Shown: piece by piece, positions 1 through 8,187 of the stretch
Numbering within the stretch: position 1 is the stretch's first letter
Layout of the letters: each line of letters opens with the position of its first letter
Assembly: GCA_040757595.1 (NCBI GenBank)
Contig: JBFLWP010000002.1
Location: forward strand, 231,832 to 263,831
DNA length: 32,000 bases
Source: Nitrospirota bacterium
GTDB lineage: Bacteria; Nitrospirota; Nitrospiria; Nitrospirales; Nitrospiraceae
Reading direction: 5' to 3'
Translations under genes and position numbers: made by a program
The notes under the pieces: model-generated
Told to the model about the DNA's origin: nothing
What the model saw: the letters and a program-made list of their open reading frames with translations, nothing else
Database searches by the model: none

Positions 1-362
1 AGGTGCTCAAGAAGGTGGTCGAGGAGGCGGGGGAGGTCGCGCTGGCGGCCAAGGGCGGAAAGCGGGAGGAGATCGTCTACGAGGCGGCCGATCTCCTGTT
101 CCACACCCTGGTCGCGCTCGGCTATCACGACGTCACCCCCCAAGAAGTCTATCAGGAGCTGGCAAGCCGGTTCGGGAAGAGCGGGCTGCGCGCCAAGACC
201 ATTGCGGCTGGGACGGGACCGTCGGGCCGGGAGCGTCGGGCCGGACGGGAGCGGCGGGGCAGCCGGGACCGCCGATCGGCTCAGGGCCAGCGGAGCGGGG
301 CGGAGCGGCGGAAGGGACCGGACCGGCGGCAGAGCCGGGAGCGGAGGGGGAGACGCGCATGA
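1..362 (+). CDS. hisE: phosphoribosyl-ATP pyrophosphohydrolase (HisE), 5' end cut by the window edge, with an Arg-rich C-terminal tail
   Basis: The ORF is open to the left edge. [42 protein letters not shown] matches the MazG-like HisE helices. The stop TGA at 360-362 overlaps the next ATG (ATGA). The last ~50 aa are [E/D]RR repeats. Confidence 0.8.
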
Positions 363-703
363 GCGACTGCATCTTCTGCAAGATCGCCGAGAAGAAGATT
401 CCCGCCAAGGTCGTCCACGAGGACGACCGCTGCCTCGCCTTCGACGACATCAATCCCCAGGCGCCCATCCACACGCTGGTCATCCCCAAGCGCCACGCTT
501 CCTCCATTGCCGAGCTGACCGAGGCCGACGCAGGCCTGCTGGGGCACCTTATGCTGACGGCGGGGGCGGTGGCGAAGCAGAAGGGGATCGCGGAGTCCGG
601 CTATCGGGTGGTCCTGAACACGGGCAGGAACGGCGGCCAGACGGTCTTCCACCTCCATGTCCACCTGCTCGGCGGCCGTCCGATGCACTGGCCGCCCGGA
701 TAA
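359..703 (+). CDS. HIT-family (histidine triad) nucleotide hydrolase
   Basis: 114 aa. It has an N-terminal CIFCKI motif and a C-terminal histidine triad, HLHVHLLGG. Confidence 0.9.
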
Positions 704-722
704 AGAGAGCAGCCAGCGCCAA

Positions 723-935
723 GCGGGGCCTGTCGCCGAGCACCCCATCCGTCCTCGCTTCGCCCATCCCCCCGTGGGGGCCTTTCAACTCTCTGGTCTC
801 TTGTCGGCTAGATGACACGGAATAACCGTTGGCACACCGCAGGTGCTCACCCCCTCCGCTGCGGGCAGCCTGGGGCCCTGCTCGGCGCCACCCGCCCGGT
901 GAAATTCCGATCCAGCCGAGGCTAAAAAACGAGAA
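723..935. repeat. direct repeat, copy A (about 178 nt near-identical core plus a degenerate tail)
   Basis: By hand alignment, 723-899 equals 1770-1947 except for one A/G substitution and one 1-nt indel. The next ~35 nt still align, at roughly two-thirds identity. Confidence 0.9.
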
Positions 936-940
936 GTGAC

Positions 941-969
941 GGGGCCAGGCAGATTCCAAGCCTGGCCCC
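941..969 (+). terminator. GC-rich hairpin, possible terminator after HIT and repeat A
   Basis: GGGGCCAGGC (941-950) pairs perfectly with GCCTGGCCCC (960-969) around a 9-nt loop. It is followed by TGGTTTG, which is a weak U-tract. Confidence 0.3.
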
Positions 970-1026
970 TGGTTTGCGGTCAACCCCGATCCGGACGAAG
1001 TGACGGATTGACGCCCGCTTGGGTTG

Positions 1027-1046
1027 ATGCTAGCATTGTGCTAGCA
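1027..1046 (+). promoter_or_regulatory. tandem palindromic operator candidate for the RHH antitoxin
   Basis: ATGCTAGCAT (1027-1036) and TGCTAGCA (1039-1046) are both self-complementary. They lie 20-40 nt upstream of the vapB ATG and overlap a TTGATG -35-like hexamer. Confidence 0.5.
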
Positions 1047-1065
1047 TGCTGAGGAGGGTGGAGCC

Positions 1066-1299
1066 ATGGCACAAGTACTTGTCCGACAGCTTGACGACAA
1101 GGTCGTGGAGCGGTTGAAACGCCGGGCCAAAGAGCATGGCCGGTCCTTGCAGTCCGAAGTCAAGACGATCCTGGAGGAGGCTGCGCCGGACTACGAAGCG
1201 GCGTGGAGGCGGATCGAGCGATTTCGAAGCCGGCTCAAACGGTCGGGGCGTCGGTTCAGTGACAGCGCCGAACTCCTCCGCGAGGATCGGGACCGGTGA
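1066..1299 (+). CDS. vapB: ribbon-helix-helix antitoxin (FitA/VapB type)
   Basis: 77 aa. VLVRQLDDKVVERLKRRAKEHGRSLQSEVKTILEEA fits the RHH strand-helix-helix pattern. The SD GAGGAGGG is at 1051-1058. The stop overlaps the GTG of the PIN gene (GTGA). Confidence 0.85.
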   Translation: MAQVLVRQLDDKVVERLKRRAKEHGRSLQSEVKTILEEAAPDYEAAWRRIERFRSRLKRSGRRFSDSAELLREDRDR

Positions 1300-1727
1300 A
1301 CCGTTATGTGGTGGATGCCAGCGTCGCGATCAAATGGTTCATCCCCGAGCGGCTTTCCGAGGCGGCGGGTCGGCTCCGCCAGGCGAACCACAGCTTGTCG
1401 GTACCGGCCTTCTTTTGGCTCGAAATCGGGAACGTTCTCGCCAAGAAGATTCGCCGGGGCGAGATCACCGGAGAAGAAGGCGACTTCATTCTGAAAGAAC
1501 TTCGGCAGTTGCCGTTCCGGCGGCATGCCGATGAGAGGCTGTTCCGCTCTGCCTACGCCCTTGCGTTGCAGACGCAACGCAGCCTGTACGATTGCCTGTA
1601 TCTGGCCTTGGCCGAAGTCATTGACGGGCGCATGGTTACCGCGGACCGCAAGTTCTACGCGGCGCTCATGGCCGGGGAACAGGGCCGACGGCTGCTCTGG
1701 GTTGAGGATCTGCCGCAGGCGACCTGA
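1296..1727 (+). CDS. vapC: PIN-domain toxin (VapC/FitB type)
   Basis: 143 aa. The PIN acidic residues sit in their usual contexts: YVVDASV, WLEIGNV, YDCLYLALA, VTADRKF. Confidence 0.9.
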   Translation: MNRYVVDASVAIKWFIPERLSEAAGRLRQANHSLSVPAFFWLEIGNVLAKKIRRGEITGEEGDFILKELRQLPFRRHADERLFRSAYALALQTQRSLYDCLYLALAEVIDGRMVTADRKFYAALMAGEQGRRLLWVEDLPQAT

Positions 1728-1769
1728 GAAAGCTTGCCGCGGCTGACGAATGGCTGAAGGAAGAACCGG

Positions 1770-1985
1770 GCGGGGCCTGTCGCCGAGCACCCCGTCCGTC
1801 CTCGCTTCGCCCATCCCCCCGTGGGGGCCTTTCAACTCTCTGGTCTCTTGTCGGCTAGATGACACGGAATAACCGTTGGCACACCGCAGGGTGCTCACCC
1901 CCTCCGCTGCGGGCAGCCTGGGGCCCTGCTCGGCGCCACCCGCCCGGCGAAACACCGTTCCATCCGCGGCGAAAAAGGAAAGGTA
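1770..1985. repeat. direct repeat, copy B
   Basis: See copy A. This copy starts 43 nt after the vapC stop. Confidence 0.9.
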
Positions 1986-2045
1986 TCGCGATGCAGGACC
2001 GGCCACCCAGTTGAAGTAACCTCGCACTAAGAATAAAAAAAGTAG

Positions 2046-2082
2046 AAAGGCGACGAGTCGCTTATTGGGACCCGTCGCCTTT
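2046..2082. terminator. hairpin flanked by an A-run/T-run at the left edge of the low-GC island
   Basis: AAAGGCGACG (2046-2055) pairs with CGTCGCCTTT (2073-2082). On the + strand it is preceded by AATAAAAAAAGTAG, so on the minus strand it reads as a hairpin plus a T-run. The + strand has only TTT after the stem. Confidence 0.35.
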
Positions 2083-2130
2083 CGTCGCGGTGAAGCACCG
2101 CGCCTCATTTGGAGCTTCGGCCTCGGCGGG

Positions 2131-2159
2131 TTGACACGATTCGCAACAAGACGTAGCCT
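2131..2159 (+). promoter_or_regulatory. candidate sigma-70 promoter for the island operon
   Basis: TTGACA (2131-2136), a 17-nt spacer, then TAGCCT (2154-2159). The -35 is perfect and the -10 is weak. Confidence 0.3.
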
Positions 2160-2241
2160 GTTGCTGCCTCACCACTGCCGCTGATAAGGAGCCCGTTTTC
2201 TTTCGTCCGACACTGTCTTTCAGGGCAGGTTCTGGGTTTCT

Positions 2242-2961
2242 ATGGAATCAGGACCTTCGGCAAGCACGTCGCCTCCATTCTCCACCGGAAGTTACTGGAC
2301 CCGTAACCGTATGGAACTATTAGCGTGGTTTCGACGGAATGCTCCTTCCTTGGGAGAACTCTATGAAGGCGCGGTCAAGATGTTGTTCGAGAACACCATA
2401 CCTGGGCGCACTCGCTTCATTGCTCATGCTGTTCGGGATATTCGAAACAGGCTTCCAGAGGTCATATCAGGTCTCAAGGGTGGAGCCCGCTTCGAGTGGA
2501 AGCAGCACTTGGATGAGCTCACAGACGCGTGGCAAAAAGCAGGGTTCTCCTTGGATAGCTCATTACCAGTTACTATGACCCAAAGTGGTACTTCCTCGGA
2601 TTCTCGATCATCCAATGTTACATTGCCGCCGCATCTTTTTCGTAGGATTGCAAAGATGCTCGAGGAGTATTCTCGCACGCGCGAGACAAGAAGATCAGCA
2701 GCCATCAGGCTTTTTGAGGGTTGTGCTCCAGAGAACAAGCAACAAAAAGATGCCCTCGAACCGATAGTCAGCCAATGGATGGACATCACCGAGTGGTTTG
2801 TCAACACAGTACACGACTCTGGTCAGCCTGATGGCGATTATGATTGTGCTGAGTTTACGAGGCATTTCCTTCTGTTCGAAGACACTTTAATAGCGCTACT
2901 AGGTCAATTCTTTACGACTATCAAAGGACTCGATGAGATCCTGGAAGACACCAACTCCTGA
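2242..2961 (+). CDS. hypothetical protein, 239 aa, no recognisable domain
   Basis: It is the only long ORF here in a region of lower GC. The sequence looks protein-like and helical. An alternative start is ATG 2311 (MELLAWF). The 3' end overlaps the next gene by 29 nt. Confidence 0.6.
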   Translation: MESGPSASTSPPFSTGSYWTRNRMELLAWFRRNAPSLGELYEGAVKMLFENTIPGRTRFIAHAVRDIRNRLPEVISGLKGGARFEWKQHLDELTDAWQKAGFSLDSSLPVTMTQSGTSSDSRSSNVTLPPHLFRRIAKMLEEYSRTRETRRSAAIRLFEGCAPENKQQKDALEPIVSQWMDITEWFVNTVHDSGQPDGDYDCAEFTRHFLLFEDTLIALLGQFFTTIKGLDEILEDTNS

Positions 2962-5806
2962 GCAGGTTGATAGGGCCATCGCTCTTCTCGCTCACCCAGA
3001 ACTGCGTCGGTACTTCTTCGACCGGCTTGAGAATCCTCACTGGCTTGAACCGCTGAAGCAAAAAGGATTCTTTGGGCATCCGCCCGCGGTTGTGAGAGAC
3101 GAGGGAAAAGGGACTGTTCGATTTCCTCCATGGCCAGAATCGCGGTATTTAGCCCGCATGGCAGTGCATAATCCAGCAAAGGTGCTCGAGATAGCGCTAT
3201 CGATCGAGACGGATAACATCCGCGTCAATGAAGATCTTTTGGACGCAGCGCTTGCAATGCCCGCCGAGATGGCAGCCACGCTAGCGTCGAAGGCACCAGC
3301 ATGGATAGAAAGGCCATATTCCCCTTTTTGGCCAGAGAAGTTCGGTGATCTGGTCGGGCATCTGGCGCGGGGCAATCAAGTGGAGGTCGCCCTGACACTG
3401 GCGCAGAAGTTACTCGCCGTTCTACCGAGCCAGGGAGCCCTTTCTCAGGCGCGAGCGCGATTCGAGGCCTGGCATTACGAAGGCATCCTTGAGAAGAACC
3501 TTCCCGACCTGATCGCGGCGGCGGGAGTGCGTGCCTTGAATCTTCTGTGCGATCTCCTCAACAGCGCTATGCAGTTGTCCCGCGAACACATAGACGAGGA
3601 GGGAGGTGAGGACTACTCATACATCTGGCGACCTGCAATCGAAGGTGAGAGACACAGGGGCTTTCATGAGATCAGAGACCTCTTGGTTTCAGCAGTCAGG
3701 GATGCCGCTATACAGATAGTCCGGAAGGATCAAACGTTGCTCGCATCGGTACTCGACGAGTTGGAGCGGAGACCCTGGAAAATCTTCCGGCGGATTGGAC
3801 TGCATGTTTCGCGTTCATTCCCGGGCAGTGAACCGGACTTGGTGCGATCGAGGCTTATGAATCGGACCCTGTTCGAAGACCGCGGGACCCAGCGCGAATA
3901 CGCTCTTATGTTAAGGAATCGGTTTAGCCTTCTCTCTGCGGATGACCAGACGGAGGTCTTAGGCTGGATAGAGCAAGGGCCCGACCTCGATCGGTTTTGG
4001 GAGAGCCGGAAGGCTTGGGGAGAACAAATACCGACCGAAGAGGAGTCAGCGGCCTATGCGGGGCAATGGCGCCTCAGGCGCCTAAGGTGGATTCGAGACT
4101 CACTACCCACGGAATGGAAGCAGCGGTACGACGCCCTTGTGCAGCAGTTCGGAGAACCGCAGGACCCGGAAATGGTCCCAAGAGCCGAGGCTGTAAGGGT
4201 TGGTCCACGAGCTCCGAAAAGTCAAGAGGAGCTTGGCGCAATGTCTGCTACCGAGGTGATCGCTTATTTGAAGTCGTGGCTTCCGTCTGACGATGCACTT
4301 GGTCCTTCACCAGAAGGGCTAGGGAGGCAATTAAAGAACGTCGTCGCTGCTGAGCCGGATCGCTTTGCCCAGAGCGCATTCAGTTTTCGGGAGGTTGATC
4401 CGACATATGTCCGCGCGGTTTTGGAGGGCCTCCATGATGCAGCAAGGGAAAGACCGTTTCCCTGGGAGCCCGTACTTGATCTGTGTTTGTGGGTTGTCAC
4501 TCAACCGAGGGAGATAGAAGGCCGGACCGTGAGGAAGTGGGATGCTGATCCAGACTGGGGGGCGACACGCTCTGCAATAGCAAGGCTTCTATCGGTAGGG
4601 CTTCAAGAAGGACAATATGAACTTCCGATGTCCCTACGTACCAAGGTTTGGAAGATTCTCTGGGAGTTGACGGAGGACCCCGAACCGTCACCACAGTACG
4701 AGAGAGAATTCGGTGGGACCAATATGGACCCAGTGGCTATGTCCATTAACACAGTGCGGGGAGAAGCCATGCACACTGTGGTGCGTTATGCCCTTTGGGT
4801 CCGTCGCTACATTGCGAAAGCTGAGGACGCTGAACAACGAATTACACGTGGCTTCGGAGAGATGCCTGAGGTGACGGAGGTTCTTGAAGCGCATCTAGAT
4901 CCAGCACATGATCCTTCTCTTGCAGTTCGCGCTGTTTATGGTGAGTGGCTTCCTTGGCTTGTGCTCCTTGACCGTGGATGGACCACCGACAACCTGAGCA
5001 GGATATTCCCGGACAACGACAATCAAAGGAACTTTCGAGATGCCGCATGGGAAGCGTACATTGTCTTTTGCCAGCCATATGACGACGCTTTTTATGTAAT
5101 AAAGGATGTATATGCTCGCGCTGTCGAGCGAATTGGCACGGTTGCTGCCGATAGTCGGCATCGTGGTGACCCGGATCAGCATCTCGCTGAGCACTTGATG
5201 GTTTTCTATTGGCGAGGCAAGCTGGATGTTAATGAGCAAGGGGGGGTACTGGGAAGATTTTACGAAAAGGCGCCAGATTCGCTTCGGGCGCATGCGATTG
5301 AGTTCATAGGGCGCAGCCTGAGTAACACCGAAGGTGCTGTGGAGGCAGGGGTCCTTGACCGACTTCGATCCATTTGGGCCATACGCCTTGGTTCCGCGCG
5401 CGCGGCGTCAAATCGTGAGACGCATGCTGGAGAGATGGCTGCGTTTGGGTGGTGGTTTGCCTCAGGTAAGTTTGACGACCCATGGGCGGTCGAACAATTG
5501 TTCGCTGCGCTCTCTTTGATACGAAAAATCGATGCAGGCTGGCTGGTTCTAGAGAGACTTGCTGCCCTAGCAGAGGCTATGCCCAATGAGAGTGTTCGAT
5601 GTGCATTGCTGATGATTGAAGGGGATTTGAAGGGCTGGGAAATTCACGGCTGGCGAAACGAGTTGCGTGCCATATTGTCCACTGTTATTCGGAGCACTCG
5701 CCCCAACGCTCTCCAAGGAGCGGTAGAGCTCGTCAATCGTTTAGGTGCCAAAGGGTTTCTTGAGTTCAGAGATTTGCTCCCATCGGGTGACTTATCGCTA
5801 GACTGA
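2933..5806 (+). CDS. hypothetical large protein, 957 aa, probably all-alpha (solenoid-like)
   Basis: An uninterrupted 2.9-kb ORF in ~50% GC sequence is unlikely by chance. The protein is rich in L/E/R/W/A. I saw no P-loop, nuclease or transmembrane motif by eye. Confidence 0.8.
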   Translation: MRSWKTPTPEQVDRAIALLAHPELRRYFFDRLENPHWLEPLKQKGFFGHPPAVVRDEGKGTVRFPPWPESRYLARMAVHNPAKVLEIALSIETDNIRVNEDLLDAALAMPAEMAATLASKAPAWIERPYSPFWPEKFGDLVGHLARGNQVEVALTLAQKLLAVLPSQGALSQARARFEAWHYEGILEKNLPDLIAAAGVRALNLLCDLLNSAMQLSREHIDEEGGEDYSYIWRPAIEGERHRGFHEIRDLLVSAVRDAAIQIVRKDQTLLASVLDELERRPWKIFRRIGLHVSRSFPGSEPDLVRSRLMNRTLFEDRGTQREYALMLRNRFSLLSADDQTEVLGWIEQGPDLDRFWESRKAWGEQIPTEEESAAYAGQWRLRRLRWIRDSLPTEWKQRYDALVQQFGEPQDPEMVPRAEAVRVGPRAPKSQEELGAMSATEVIAYLKSWLPSDDALGPSPEGLGRQLKNVVAAEPDRFAQSAFSFREVDPTYVRAVLEGLHDAARERPFPWEPVLDLCLWVVTQPREIEGRTVRKWDADPDWGATRSAIARLLSVGLQEGQYELPMSLRTKVWKILWELTEDPEPSPQYEREFGGTNMDPVAMSINTVRGEAMHTVVRYALWVRRYIAKAEDAEQRITRGFGEMPEVTEVLEAHLDPAHDPSLAVRAVYGEWLPWLVLLDRGWTTDNLSRIFPDNDNQRNFRDAAWEAYIVFCQPYDDAFYVIKDVYARAVERIGTVAADSRHRGDPDQHLAEHLMVFYWRGKLDVNEQGGVLGRFYEKAPDSLRAHAIEFIGRSLSNTEGAVEAGVLDRLRSIWAIRLGSARAASNRETHAGEMAAFGWWFASGKFDDPWAVEQLFAALSLIRKIDAGWLVLERLAALAEAMPNESVRCALLMIEGDLKGWEIHGWRNELRAILSTVIRSTRPNALQGAVELVNRLGAKGFLEFRDLLPSGDLSLD

Positions 5807-5868
5807 AGAAAGCATGCTAGAAGTCATTGTTATGTGAAGCTAGGCGGACGAGTGGGCGTTGAGGGGTT

Positions 5869-6201
5869 TTGGCGAATAGTGGCGAAGAATCCGAGGAGAA
5901 GGCCCTGCTCCAGACGTTGAGGTCATTGACGAACGACGAGAAACGCTTCACGAGGGACGGGGGCGGCTTTTTTGCCGAGCTGGTTGAGGAGGGACAACCT
6001 ATGGAGCTGGAAGAGGCCAGAGCGCGGATCGAGGCGGCCATCGGGCAGTACGGGCAGCGGGCGGCCAACGCGATCGAGTTGGTGATCAACGAGGTGCGCT
6101 CGGACCTCGGCGCGGCGGCCGTGAACGAGCTGATTGACGAATTCGACCTGGAGCTCCAGTACAACATCGCGCCCCTGGAATCGGACTATTCGAACTTCTG
6201 A
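5869..6201 (+). CDS. hypothetical small acidic protein (110 aa from TTG; start uncertain)
   Basis: The ORF is acidic and helical, returns to core-like GC, and lies directly upstream of the dnaG promoter region. The first in-frame ATG is only at codon 45. Confidence 0.45.
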   Translation: MANSGEESEEKALLQTLRSLTNDEKRFTRDGGGFFAELVEEGQPMELEEARARIEAAIGQYGQRAANAIELVINEVRSDLGAAAVNELIDEFDLELQYNIAPLESDYSNF

Positions 6202-6241
6202 CCGACCCCCCCGTCCTTCCTTTCCCGCCCTTCCCGCGCCA

Positions 6242-6270
6242 TTGACTTCCCCGTCACCCGTCTGTTAAAT
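6242..6270 (+). promoter_or_regulatory. candidate sigma-70 promoter of dnaG-rpoD
   Basis: TTGACT (6242-6247), a 17-nt spacer, then TTAAAT (6265-6270). Confidence 0.4.
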
Positions 6271-6357
6271 TGCAAGGTCAATTTTTCTGGATTTTCAAGC
6301 CCTTCCACTTCGACTGGCTCGGTTCATCACGGCACGGGATCACAGGAGCGGATTGGC

Positions 6358-8187
6358 GTGAGCCAGGGCCTCATTCCGGAAGACGTTCTCAACCACATCC
6401 GGGAACGAGCGGACATCGCGCAGGTCGTGTCCGACTACGTGACCCTCTCCCGGGCCGGGCAGAACCTCAAGGGGCTCTGCCCCTTCCACAGCGAGAAGAC
6501 CCCCTCCTTCACGGTCAGCCCCTCCAGGCAGATGTTCCACTGTTTCGGCTGCGGGGTGGGCGGGAACGTCTTCACGTTCCTGATGAAGATCGAGGGGATG
6601 GAGTTCCCGGAGGCCGCGCGCGAGTTGGGGCGTCGCACGGGGGTGGCCATTCCCGAGACCCGCGGGGGCCAAGCGCAGAGCCGCGGGGACCGGCAGAAGC
6701 TGGAGCAGATTCACGAGGCGGCGGCGGCCTGGTTCCGGCGGAACCTGGAGGAGGGGGAGACCGGCAAAGAGGCCCGGGCCTATCTCGCCCGGCGCGGGAT
6801 CACTCAGGAGACCATCGAGGCCTTCGGCGTGGGCGTCGCGCCGCCCGCCTGGGACGGGTTGATCCGCAGCCTGGGCCAGGCCGGTTACAAGCCTGCCGAC
6901 CTGGCTGCGGCCGGCCTGGCCGTGCCGCGGGAGCGGGACGGGAAGGGCCAGCCAGGCGCGGCCGGCTACTACGACCGGTTCCGCGGGCGCGTGATGTTTC
7001 CGATCCGGGATCTCCGGCAGCGGGTCATCGCCTTCGGCGGGCGCGTGCTGGACGATGCGGTCCCCAAGTACCTGAACTCGCCGGACACGCCGCTCTTCAA
7101 CAAGGGGCGGAACCTCTACGCCCTCGACCAGGCGCGCGAGGCAGCCGGGCGGGCGGACACCCTCGTGATCGTGGAAGGCTATTTCGACGCGATCGCGCTG
7201 CACCAGGCCGGAGTCCGGAACGTGGCCGCGACGCTGGGCACGGCGCTGACGCCCGAGCACGTGCAAACGCTCCGGCGGTTCGTCAAGCGGCTCGTGTTGC
7301 TCTTCGACCCGGATCCGGCCGGCGTGCGGGCGGCGCTGCGGACGTTGGACCTCTTCGTCGGCAGCGGGATGGGCGTGCGGGTCGTGTCGCTGCCGGCCGG
7401 CGAGGACCCAGACACATACATCCGCAAGACCGGGGCCGAGGCCTTCCTCCAATTGCAGGACCGGGCCCCCAGCCTGCTGGACTTTTCGGTCGAGCACAGT
7501 CTGCAGCAGGCGGCGTCCGGACTGCTGGAGGACCGGATCAGGAGCGTGGACGAAATTCTGCGGATTCTCCAGCGGACCGCCAACCGGATCGAGAAGGAGG
7601 AATGCACCCGCCGCGTGGCGGAGCGGCTGGGCATCGGCCAGCAGCGGCTGATCGAGCGGTACCCGGAGCTCCTGCCCAAGGAAGACCGTCGCGCTTCCCG
7701 ACCCGCTCCCAGGCCGCAGGCCGCCGCGGCCGAGCCGCGGTTCAAGGCCAGCCCGGAGGAGCGGGACCTGGTCCACCTCCTCCTGCACGGCAAGCTGAGC
7801 GCCGCCCACGTCCGCTCCCTTTCGCCCGAGTCGTTCTCCGTGCCGGCCTGCCGCCGCCTCGTGGAGCTCGCGCTCGCACACCTGGACCGGGACGGCCGGG
7901 TCCTGGTCCGGCCGCTGCTGGACGCGGCGATGGCCGAGCCCCGGTGCGCGGCCGTCGCGACCGAGCTCTCCCTGCGGGACTGCCACGTGGACGACCTGAA
8001 CGAGTACATCGCCGGCTGTCTGGAGACGCTGGAGCGGAAGCGGCACGAGCTGGCGCTGAACGAGCTGATCGTCAAGCTGCGCGCGGCCGAGCGGGAGGGG
8101 CGGGCCGAGGACGTGCGGCGGCTGAATGCCCAGGTCAACGATCTGCGGATGCGGAAGGCGGGCGTGCAGCACGCTCCGACCGTGTAA
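6358..8187 (+). CDS. dnaG: DNA primase
   Basis: 609 aa from GTG. It has the zinc finger [26 protein letters not shown] and TOPRIM motifs ([25 protein letters not shown]). Confidence 0.95.

Follow-up and report, generated by a model that had tools for sequence, protein, structure and literature searches.

We report that two overlapping genes, here called A and B, in a 32,000-nucleotide (nt) stretch of a Nitrospirota bacterium contig (the window, to which all positions refer unless another locus is named) encode what is probably a horizontally acquired, split two-gene member of the non-STAND branch of the Dsr1/Avs7 anti-phage sensor family, a reading to which we assign a probability of roughly 70%. 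The frame of B is +1 relative to that of A, and the two genes share 29 nt.

Gene A: 2242-2961, plus strand; open reading frame (ORF) of 239 amino acids (aa), a helical protein in the effector position.
Gene B: 2933-5806, plus strand; ORF of 957 aa, a probable Dsr1/Avs7-type alpha-solenoid sensor without SIR2 and without a nucleoside triphosphatase (NTPase) domain.

Dsr1 (defence-associated sirtuin 1) was reportedly described by Gao et al. in 2020 and by Garb et al. in 2022. A first-pass annotation of the window had found no recognisable domain in A or B and nothing that matched a system it could name. Pfam indeed contained no family for B, yet defence-specific libraries recognised it. The PADLOC Dsr1 model (PDLC04166) matched B with E=1.4e-43, placing residues 178-898 on profile positions 505-1176 of 1227, and the NCBIfam Dsr1 model (NF041818) gave a partial match (E=3.9e-9, 34.8 bits) that did not reach the equivalog cut-off of 1400 bits. 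B is clearly homologous to the Dsr1 sensor region, and the Dsr1 family has a published trigger (PMC13581612); the first of the earlier statements thus holds only in part, and the second is not borne out. Searching plasmids by tblastn, we found relatives of B in a Bacillus cereus-group "SIR2 family protein" (E=8e-14), a haloarchaeal "ATP-binding protein/AAA ATPase" (E=5e-49) and a Streptomyces hypothetical protein (E=1e-52). The Bacillus relative is a bona fide Dsr1 (PADLOC E=2.6e-143) with an N-terminal SIR2_2 domain (Pfam E=2e-13), while the sensor is preceded by a P-loop region in the Natronorubrum relative (sensor at Dsr1 profile 417-1213) and by an N-terminal domain of about 190 aa in the Streptomyces relative. 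Sensors resembling B are thus found fused to SIR2, to P-loop ATPases or to A-like domains.

Neither A nor B contained SIR2 or SIR2_2 in Pfam at E<=1, and no NTPase family was found for either protein in Pfam, NCBIfam or PADLOC. A pattern scan of both proteins found no Walker A, HNH-like, PD-(D/E)xK or HExxH pattern and no transmembrane-like hydrophobic segment, in agreement with what the earlier annotation had judged by eye for B; a single HxxEH is present in B (HLAEH, at residue 750). The AlphaFold model of B was a confident alpha-solenoid (predicted local distance difference test score, pLDDT, 85.3), and the models of both proteins were all-helical, as had been anticipated. The top fold match of the B model in the PDB was Avs4 bound to phage portal (8dgf, E=2e-6, TM-score 0.37), after which came generic solenoids, while sequence and profile searches of the PDB with B gave nothing significant, solved DSR2 chains included. 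Based on these homologies, we are confident that B is a sensor of the Dsr1/Avs7 type.

The two genes also occur together elsewhere: wherever the downstream sequence was long enough, a B homologue came directly after A. Of 49 loci, 17 had A and B in one ORF of 1130-1213 aa, and the other 32 had the split form. The longer A-containing proteins recovered in an exhaustive search were all complete or truncated A-B fusions. In one fusion (P0262), residues 219-1120 aligned with positions 290-1167 of the Dsr1 profile, directly past the A domain. Because this match begins at profile position 290, right after A, A stands in the position that SIR2 occupies in Dsr1. Since A was never seen without B, since the two are recurrently fused and since A sits at the SIR2 position, a Rosetta-stone argument from these sequences makes A and B one functional unit, with A as the putative effector. 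This agrees with the layout proposed in the first-pass annotation, a small effector beside a giant repeat-type sensor.

A/B overlap junction: 2933-2961, plus strand, GATGAGATCCTGGAAGACACCAACTCCTGA; A ends in LDEILEDTNS followed by its stop codon, and B starts with MRSWKTPTPE.

The overlap was exactly 29 nt in 24 of the 32 split loci, across phyla. The DNA of the junction was nearly invariant, with the ATG of B lying inside the invariant Asp-Glu codons of A (G-ATG-A). Among split loci with the 29-nt overlap, this ATG was intact and both ORFs were full length in 23/23, at 21-86% identity and in multiple phyla. Fused junctions, for example LDEILEDTNS-TPEQ, joined the C terminus of A to the N terminus of B collinearly. 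We considered programmed +1 frameshifting at the overlap as a way of producing an A-B fusion from the split genes. A +1 shift at the A stop would mimic the natural fused junctions, yet we rejected this possibility because the codon before the stop varies (UCC, ACC, GCC, GGC, GGA, AGC) and no slippery motif is present. Shine-Dalgarno motifs did not discriminate between the two forms (11/23 split and 5/15 fused loci). A dual-coding constraint combined with ordinary translational coupling would suffice to explain the conservation of the overlap. The coupled expression suggested earlier for the window pair is supported.

The fused Streptomyces family described below also has a split version, encoded in Streptomyces venetus by adjacent locus tags (P0417/P0419, 230-232 aa, and P0447, 855 aa), and fission of effector and sensor has therefore happened more than once. 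At one locus (L028, 10001-14879), an insertion of ~1.5 kb lies between a truncated A and B, and Legionella plasmids (L136, 3329-6846) carry an IS3 element within the sensor gene; some copies are thus disrupted.

We then consider how A-B came to lie in this genome. The pair is surrounded by core genes, hisE-HIT on one side and dnaG-rpoD on the other, and is preceded by genes for a FitA-like ribbon-helix-helix antitoxin and a PIN toxin (vapBC), both identified with Pfam. In sliding windows, the GC content was 0.48-0.58 across ~2000-6000 compared to 0.62-0.75 in the flanks. At third codon positions (GC3), it was 0.504 for A and 0.552 for B but 0.904 for HIT, 0.921 for dnaG, 0.953 for rpoD and 0.829 for the small ORF before dnaG; vapB and vapC had values of 0.73 and 0.77. 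Together with the ORF calls, these values bear out the description of two overlapping same-strand ORFs in a low-GC island.

We fetched 80 related loci via a conserved small gene (orf66) located upstream of dnaG, and A and B were absent from all 80. In loci with recognisable hisE-HIT...orf66-dnaG synteny, the gap between HIT and orf66 varied: in L084, L093 and L132 it was ~420 nt and effectively empty, while the same interval contained a GGDEF protein in L058, an unknown 293-aa protein in L070 and a YaaH-like protein in L111. The closest relative, L077 (94% identity for vapB and 87% for vapC), had vapBC followed by a low-GC type IV Mrr restriction enzyme that occupied the slot of A-B (9032-9928 of L077; GC 0.51; Mrr_N and Mrr_cat domains; PADLOC mREase_IV, E=1.5e-87). 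Given the absence of A-B from relatives, the variable contents of the slot and the bounds provided by the alignment with L077, A-B is cargo that arrived recently in a small hotspot of variable content, which in the nearest relative is taken up by a restriction enzyme. The comparison of the HIT-dnaG interval proposed in the first-pass annotation thus confirmed horizontal acquisition: the pair is not part of the lineage core, and its composition is not that of the host.

Acquired cargo without counterpart in L077: ~2163-5990, no strand assigned; delimited by pairwise alignments with L077, GC and GC3.
Hotspot backbone block with promoter-like TTGACA-17 nt-TAGCCT: 2113-2162, plus strand; 50 nt, 84% identity with L077 8899-8950.
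Hairpin with an A-rich 5' side: 2045-2083, no strand assigned; -27.7 kcal/mol, with z = -4.6 (plus strand) and -5.2 (minus strand).

The low-GC region itself was correctly recognised in the first-pass annotation, but its limits, which had been set from the hairpin to just past 5806, are replaced by ~2163-5990 in the L077 alignment. The 50-nt block lies directly upstream of differing cargo, A-B in the window and Mrr in L077, suggesting a putative resident hotspot promoter that would drive any inserted cargo; a consensus promoter scan did not flag its TTGACA-17 nt-TAGCCT element. The A-rich hairpin, reported earlier near 2030-2082, is real. Read on the minus strand, it precedes a U-run in the manner of a textbook terminator, although there is no gene on that strand to the right of the hairpin; it may have been left behind by earlier cargo or may insulate against antisense transcription. 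In this Nitrospirota lineage, the HIT-dnaG interval offers a clean case of a small, cargo-swapping defence hotspot: some genomes have it empty, others have vapBC, Mrr, A-B or other cargo in it, and the variable cargo sits behind a common promoter-like block.

Several other elements were apparent in this interval. A direct repeat of ~207 nt (723-928 and 1770-1976; 99% identity over 121 nt and 92% over 87 nt) flanks vapBC, its copies beginning just past the HIT stop and just past the vapC stop. The second copy (~1741-1990) is missing in L077, which keeps vapBC. No further copy was found in the window, and Rfam gave no match on positions 1-7000, which include the repeat. A GC-rich hairpin element, GGGGCCAGGC...GCCTGGCCCC, at 931-975 (-25.5 kcal/mol) recurs in related hotspots, in L070, L073 and L075 as well as at 7920-7965 and 8853-8893 of L077, where its place on both sides of vapBC would fit a module boundary or a terminator. 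The 110-aa ORF at 5869-6201 is conserved only from residue ~45 to 110 in the 80 relatives, always upstream of dnaG, and probably corresponds to a 66-aa gene (orf66) starting at the ATG at 6001. We obtained no family assignment for orf66. In relatives, orf66 is preceded by a 105-aa tetratricopeptide repeat (TPR) gene (for example, L084 1232-1549) that is missing from the window genome. The first ORF of the window (3-362) has an Arg-rich tail that derives from imperfect 22-nt repeats at 212-355 and overlaps the start of HIT.

Outside this lineage, A-B was sporadic: we found it in 47 of 185,579 species genomes, distributed over more than 15 bacterial phyla, and in a Methanoperedenaceae archaeon. 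A and B were not found on phages, nor was A on plasmids. Neighbours included an N6/N4 methyltransferase, SLFN/AlbA, PhdYeFM-ParE and a serine recombinase at one locus, an integrase and AbiEi/AbiEii at another, and Mrr and HicB at a third; one fused A-B gene begins at the last base of hsdS, in a complete type I restriction-modification (R-M) operon. This defence-gene neighbourhood is suggestive. In contrast, vapBC is not part of the A-B module. The first-pass annotation was right that the two adjoin in the window, but L077 has vapBC without A-B, other A-B loci (L001, L003 and L006) have no vapBC, and the PIN gene found near L007, in which A and B are fused, is unrelated.

Protein A belongs to a large family, with at least 246 clusters at 90% identity and at least 1,129 representatives at 50% identity, nearly all of 220-260 aa. 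We examined conservation among 36 aligned family members. A conserved block, PGRTRF(I/V)AHAVREIRNRLP, contains several invariant positions: R58, H62, R65 and N69, as well as H191 further downstream, were present in 36/36 sequences, with the spacing R58-x3-H62-x2-R65 unchanged, and D91, E213, D231 and N238 were also invariant. The GenBank start of A (AB1411_03010, 216 aa) corresponds to M24. As the family-invariant W19 and R23 lie upstream of M24, a start at 2242 or nearby appears more likely than M24 (within 2242-2313). The model of A consisted of nine helices and was all-alpha (pLDDT 78.8). Searches of the PDB by sequence and by profile with A, A1, A2 and A4 yielded nothing significant. From its position and its conservation, we consider that A is probably the effector of the pair.

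We examined and rejected several candidate assignments for A. Pfam and NCBIfam recognised nothing in the fused A-like domains introduced below, and a TetR_C_4 match in an archaeal homologue was below threshold and was discarded. A His triad (H62/H143/H191) forming a DinB- or HD-like metal site was rejected, since residue 143 is His in 33/36 family members but Tyr in the window protein; this Tyr also argues against H143 as an essential residue of A. An HD pair is not conserved either, D192 being present in 30/36 sequences and the A-like family having AHR.

HEPN RNases are defined by an Rx4-6H catalytic motif, and the first-pass annotation had noted RTRFIAH (R56-x5-H62) in A as a hint of such a site. 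The motif is present, and the literature echoes a HEPN-like reading for more distant proteins. A subset of B homologues of ~1100-1157 aa bears a divergent N-terminal A-like domain, which is collinear with residues 34-237 of A (hhalign E=1.9e-5 with 20 sequences and 2.7e-4 with 13 sequences) and keeps AH-x2-RE and a later invariant His. Among the members of this A-like family is the N terminus of a plasmid-encoded protein from Streptomyces sp. NBC_00212 (E=6e-40), which clusters at >=90% identity with WP_328755779.1 from Streptomyces sp. NBC_00271. The sensor protein of Streptomyces sp. NBC_00271 has been labelled "HEPN-like RNase" (Extended Data Fig. 2, PMC13581612), a reading that apparently comes from an AlphaFold3 model. 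We therefore keep a HEPN-like RNase as the leading, though tentative and not established, hypothesis for the chemistry of A. It is possible, if rather doubtful, that A represents instead a new class of immune effector enzyme, with an active site formed by R58-x3-H62-x2-R65-(E/D)66-x2-N69 and H191. This enzyme would be activated allosterically by the capsid-sensing solenoid, in cis in fused proteins and in trans in split ones, and the 29-nt overlap would set the A:B stoichiometry via termination-reinitiation.

The Avs7 sensor is common to non-STAND systems, Dsr1 among them, and forms a bilobed, sharply bent repeat domain wrapped around the HK97-fold major capsid protein (MCP) (Lee et al. 2026; bioRxiv, January, PMC12803255; Nature, July, PMC13581612). 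MCP is the sole trigger of SeAvs7 and EcDsr1, and disrupting the effector abolishes both toxicity and defence (PMC12803255, PMC13581612). By homology with the region of Dsr1 that follows SIR2, the large alpha-solenoid B would be the receptor of the pair and would bind a conserved structural protein that the phage makes late in infection. As trigger, the HK97-fold MCP is the most likely candidate, with odds that we judge about even. A, in the place of SIR2, would be constitutively associated with the N terminus of B, to which it is covalently fused in many genomes, and binding of the trigger would release A or switch it on. The leads for its chemistry are a metal-independent HEPN-like RNase or another hydrolase, using the helix with the invariant H62, R65 and E(D)66 together with H191. 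Activated A would then cause growth arrest or abortive infection. The conflict or defence role proposed earlier for this region is supported by the homology of B to the Dsr1 sensor and by the hotspot holding Mrr in the closest relative, and we regard it as likely.

A number of observations weigh against the picture drawn above. B shares only about 20-25% identity with Dsr1 and Avs7-like sensors, and its trigger may differ from MCP. The A family has no match in Pfam, NCBIfam, PADLOC or PDB sequences, and Foldseek found no structural neighbour of the A model in the PDB or BFVD. The link between A and the A-like domain is moderate (profile probability 42-77%), and the published HEPN-like label concerns a model of this distant relative. 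The canonical HEPN Rx4-6H motif is not conserved: R56 is kept in only 28/36 members of the A family, and in the A-like family no Arg is conserved at a distance of 4-6 residues ahead of the invariant His positions. Moreover, neither A nor the fused A-like domains matched a HEPN profile in Pfam or NCBIfam, and no HEPN structure was among the Foldseek matches of the A model. The HEPN hint of the first-pass annotation is thus echoed by the literature label but not by the conservation of R56, by profiles or by fold. Lastly, the 148 neighbouring ORFs, which we assessed only qualitatively, mix R-M, GmrSD, integrases and transposases with many metabolic genes.

These points leave room for readings that differ in the trigger or in the role of A. 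A-B could be a defence system that responds to another phage or mobile element protein, or to a host perturbation, rather than to MCP. The distance of B from the Dsr1-type and ATPase-fused sensors is compatible with this, as is the best PDB match, since Avs4 binds portal protein; moreover, at least 13 different phage proteins are reportedly recognised across the various Avs sensor families. However, the 8dgf match has a TM-score of only 0.37 and stands amid generic solenoids, and SeAvs7 and EcDsr1, the two members tested, respond uniquely to MCP although they belong to distinct clades, so that a trigger other than MCP seems unlikely. A might also not be an enzyme but an adaptor, oligomerisation or lid domain, in which case defence would be exerted by B sequestering a phage protein or by an unlinked effector. 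No catalytic family or fold matches A, the Avs7/Dsr1 sensor family includes members with effector-associated adaptor domains (EAD), and the weak TetR_C-like match in one homologue hints at a ligand-binding helical domain. Against such a role, the polar residues R58, H62, R65, N69, H191, E213 and D231 are invariant over more than 15 phyla and clustered on single helices, the H-x2-R-E motif and the later His are kept in the divergent A-like family, a pattern typical of active sites, and no conserved third gene accompanies A-B. We consider a non-enzymatic A quite improbable.

Other readings deny A-B a defence role. The position beside vapBC in a mobile hotspot could point to a selfish, toxin-antitoxin-like addiction module with A as toxin and B as antitoxin, and the relation between split and fused forms, which amounts to a frameshift at the junction, could point to a decaying pseudogene of a fused gene. 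Both are very improbable: the intact ATG and full-length ORFs in 23/23 loci at 21-86% identity indicate purifying selection on both frames, it would be unparsimonious to take a 957-aa homologue of a known phage sensor for an antitoxin, and vapBC and A-B occur independently of each other. That A-B are housekeeping or lineage-core genes of this Nitrospirota genome, as their position between hisE-HIT and dnaG-rpoD might suggest, is refuted by a GC3 of 0.50-0.55 versus 0.83-0.95, by the absence from the 80 related loci, where syntenic relatives are empty (~420 nt) or carry other cargo, and by the sporadic occurrence across phyla. We thus favour a split member of the Dsr1/Avs7 sensor family.

This assignment bears on how such sensors work and on how they are found. 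Work from 2026 showed that nature widely reuses the Dsr1/Avs7 sensor to recognise capsids, plugging this module into many effectors, and a natural two-gene form existing beside fused relatives can serve to test how a solenoid without NTPase signals to its effector, in trans or in cis. The A family, with at least 1,100 clusters in bacteria and archaea, is invisible to Pfam, NCBIfam and PADLOC, and defence annotation pipelines miss A-B or report a weak partial "Dsr1" match.

We compared A-B with described systems. Like Dsr1, A-B has an N-terminal effector followed by a large helical-repeat sensor, has no NTPase and is encoded at a single, horizontally mobile locus, and B matches the whole post-SIR2 part of Dsr1 (approximately 290-1170 of the 1227 profile positions). 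Unlike Dsr1, A-B has no SIR2 NADase, in the place of which stands the unrelated, all-helical A; the window A-B is split into two overlapping genes; and B is only ~20% identical to real Dsr1 sensors, its NCBIfam score of 34.8 bits comparing with a cut-off of 1400. With Avs7, A-B shares a homologous sensor, as seen in the match of B to haloarchaeal ATPase-fused relatives (E=5e-49), and Avs7 also swaps its N-terminal effectors modularly. In contrast to Avs7, A-B has neither a STAND NTPase nor a Walker A motif, and nucleoside triphosphate-dependent tetramerisation and EF-Tu scaffolding cannot be assumed for it. A-B is therefore neither Dsr1, since it has no SIR2 and scores far below the equivalog threshold, nor Avs7, since it has no NTPase.

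The architecture of A-B is also that of the Streptomyces sp. NBC_00271 protein, in which an N-terminal helical domain of ~190 aa from the A-like family precedes the same type of sensor. This domain is remote from A (hhalign E 2e-5 to 3e-4), the protein is fused rather than split, and its sensor matches the Dsr1 profile with only E=1.7e-6. DSR2, which combines SIR2 with a HEAT-like C-terminal domain and senses the tail tube protein, resembles A-B in concept: an effector is joined, without NTPase, to an alpha-solenoid sensor in direct contact with a structural protein of the phage. Its effector and trigger differ from those considered here, and A-B has no sequence match to solved DSR2 chains. 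The Avs7/Dsr1 sensor is joined to many N-terminal effectors, of at least 20 types (PMC12803255, PMC13581612). A-B belongs to the non-STAND branch of this shared-sensor superfamily, with which it has in common a homologous sensor and a putative N-terminal effector without NTPase, and departs from its described members in two respects: a helical effector that is invisible to the libraries, and a recurrent split form with a conserved 29-nt overlap.

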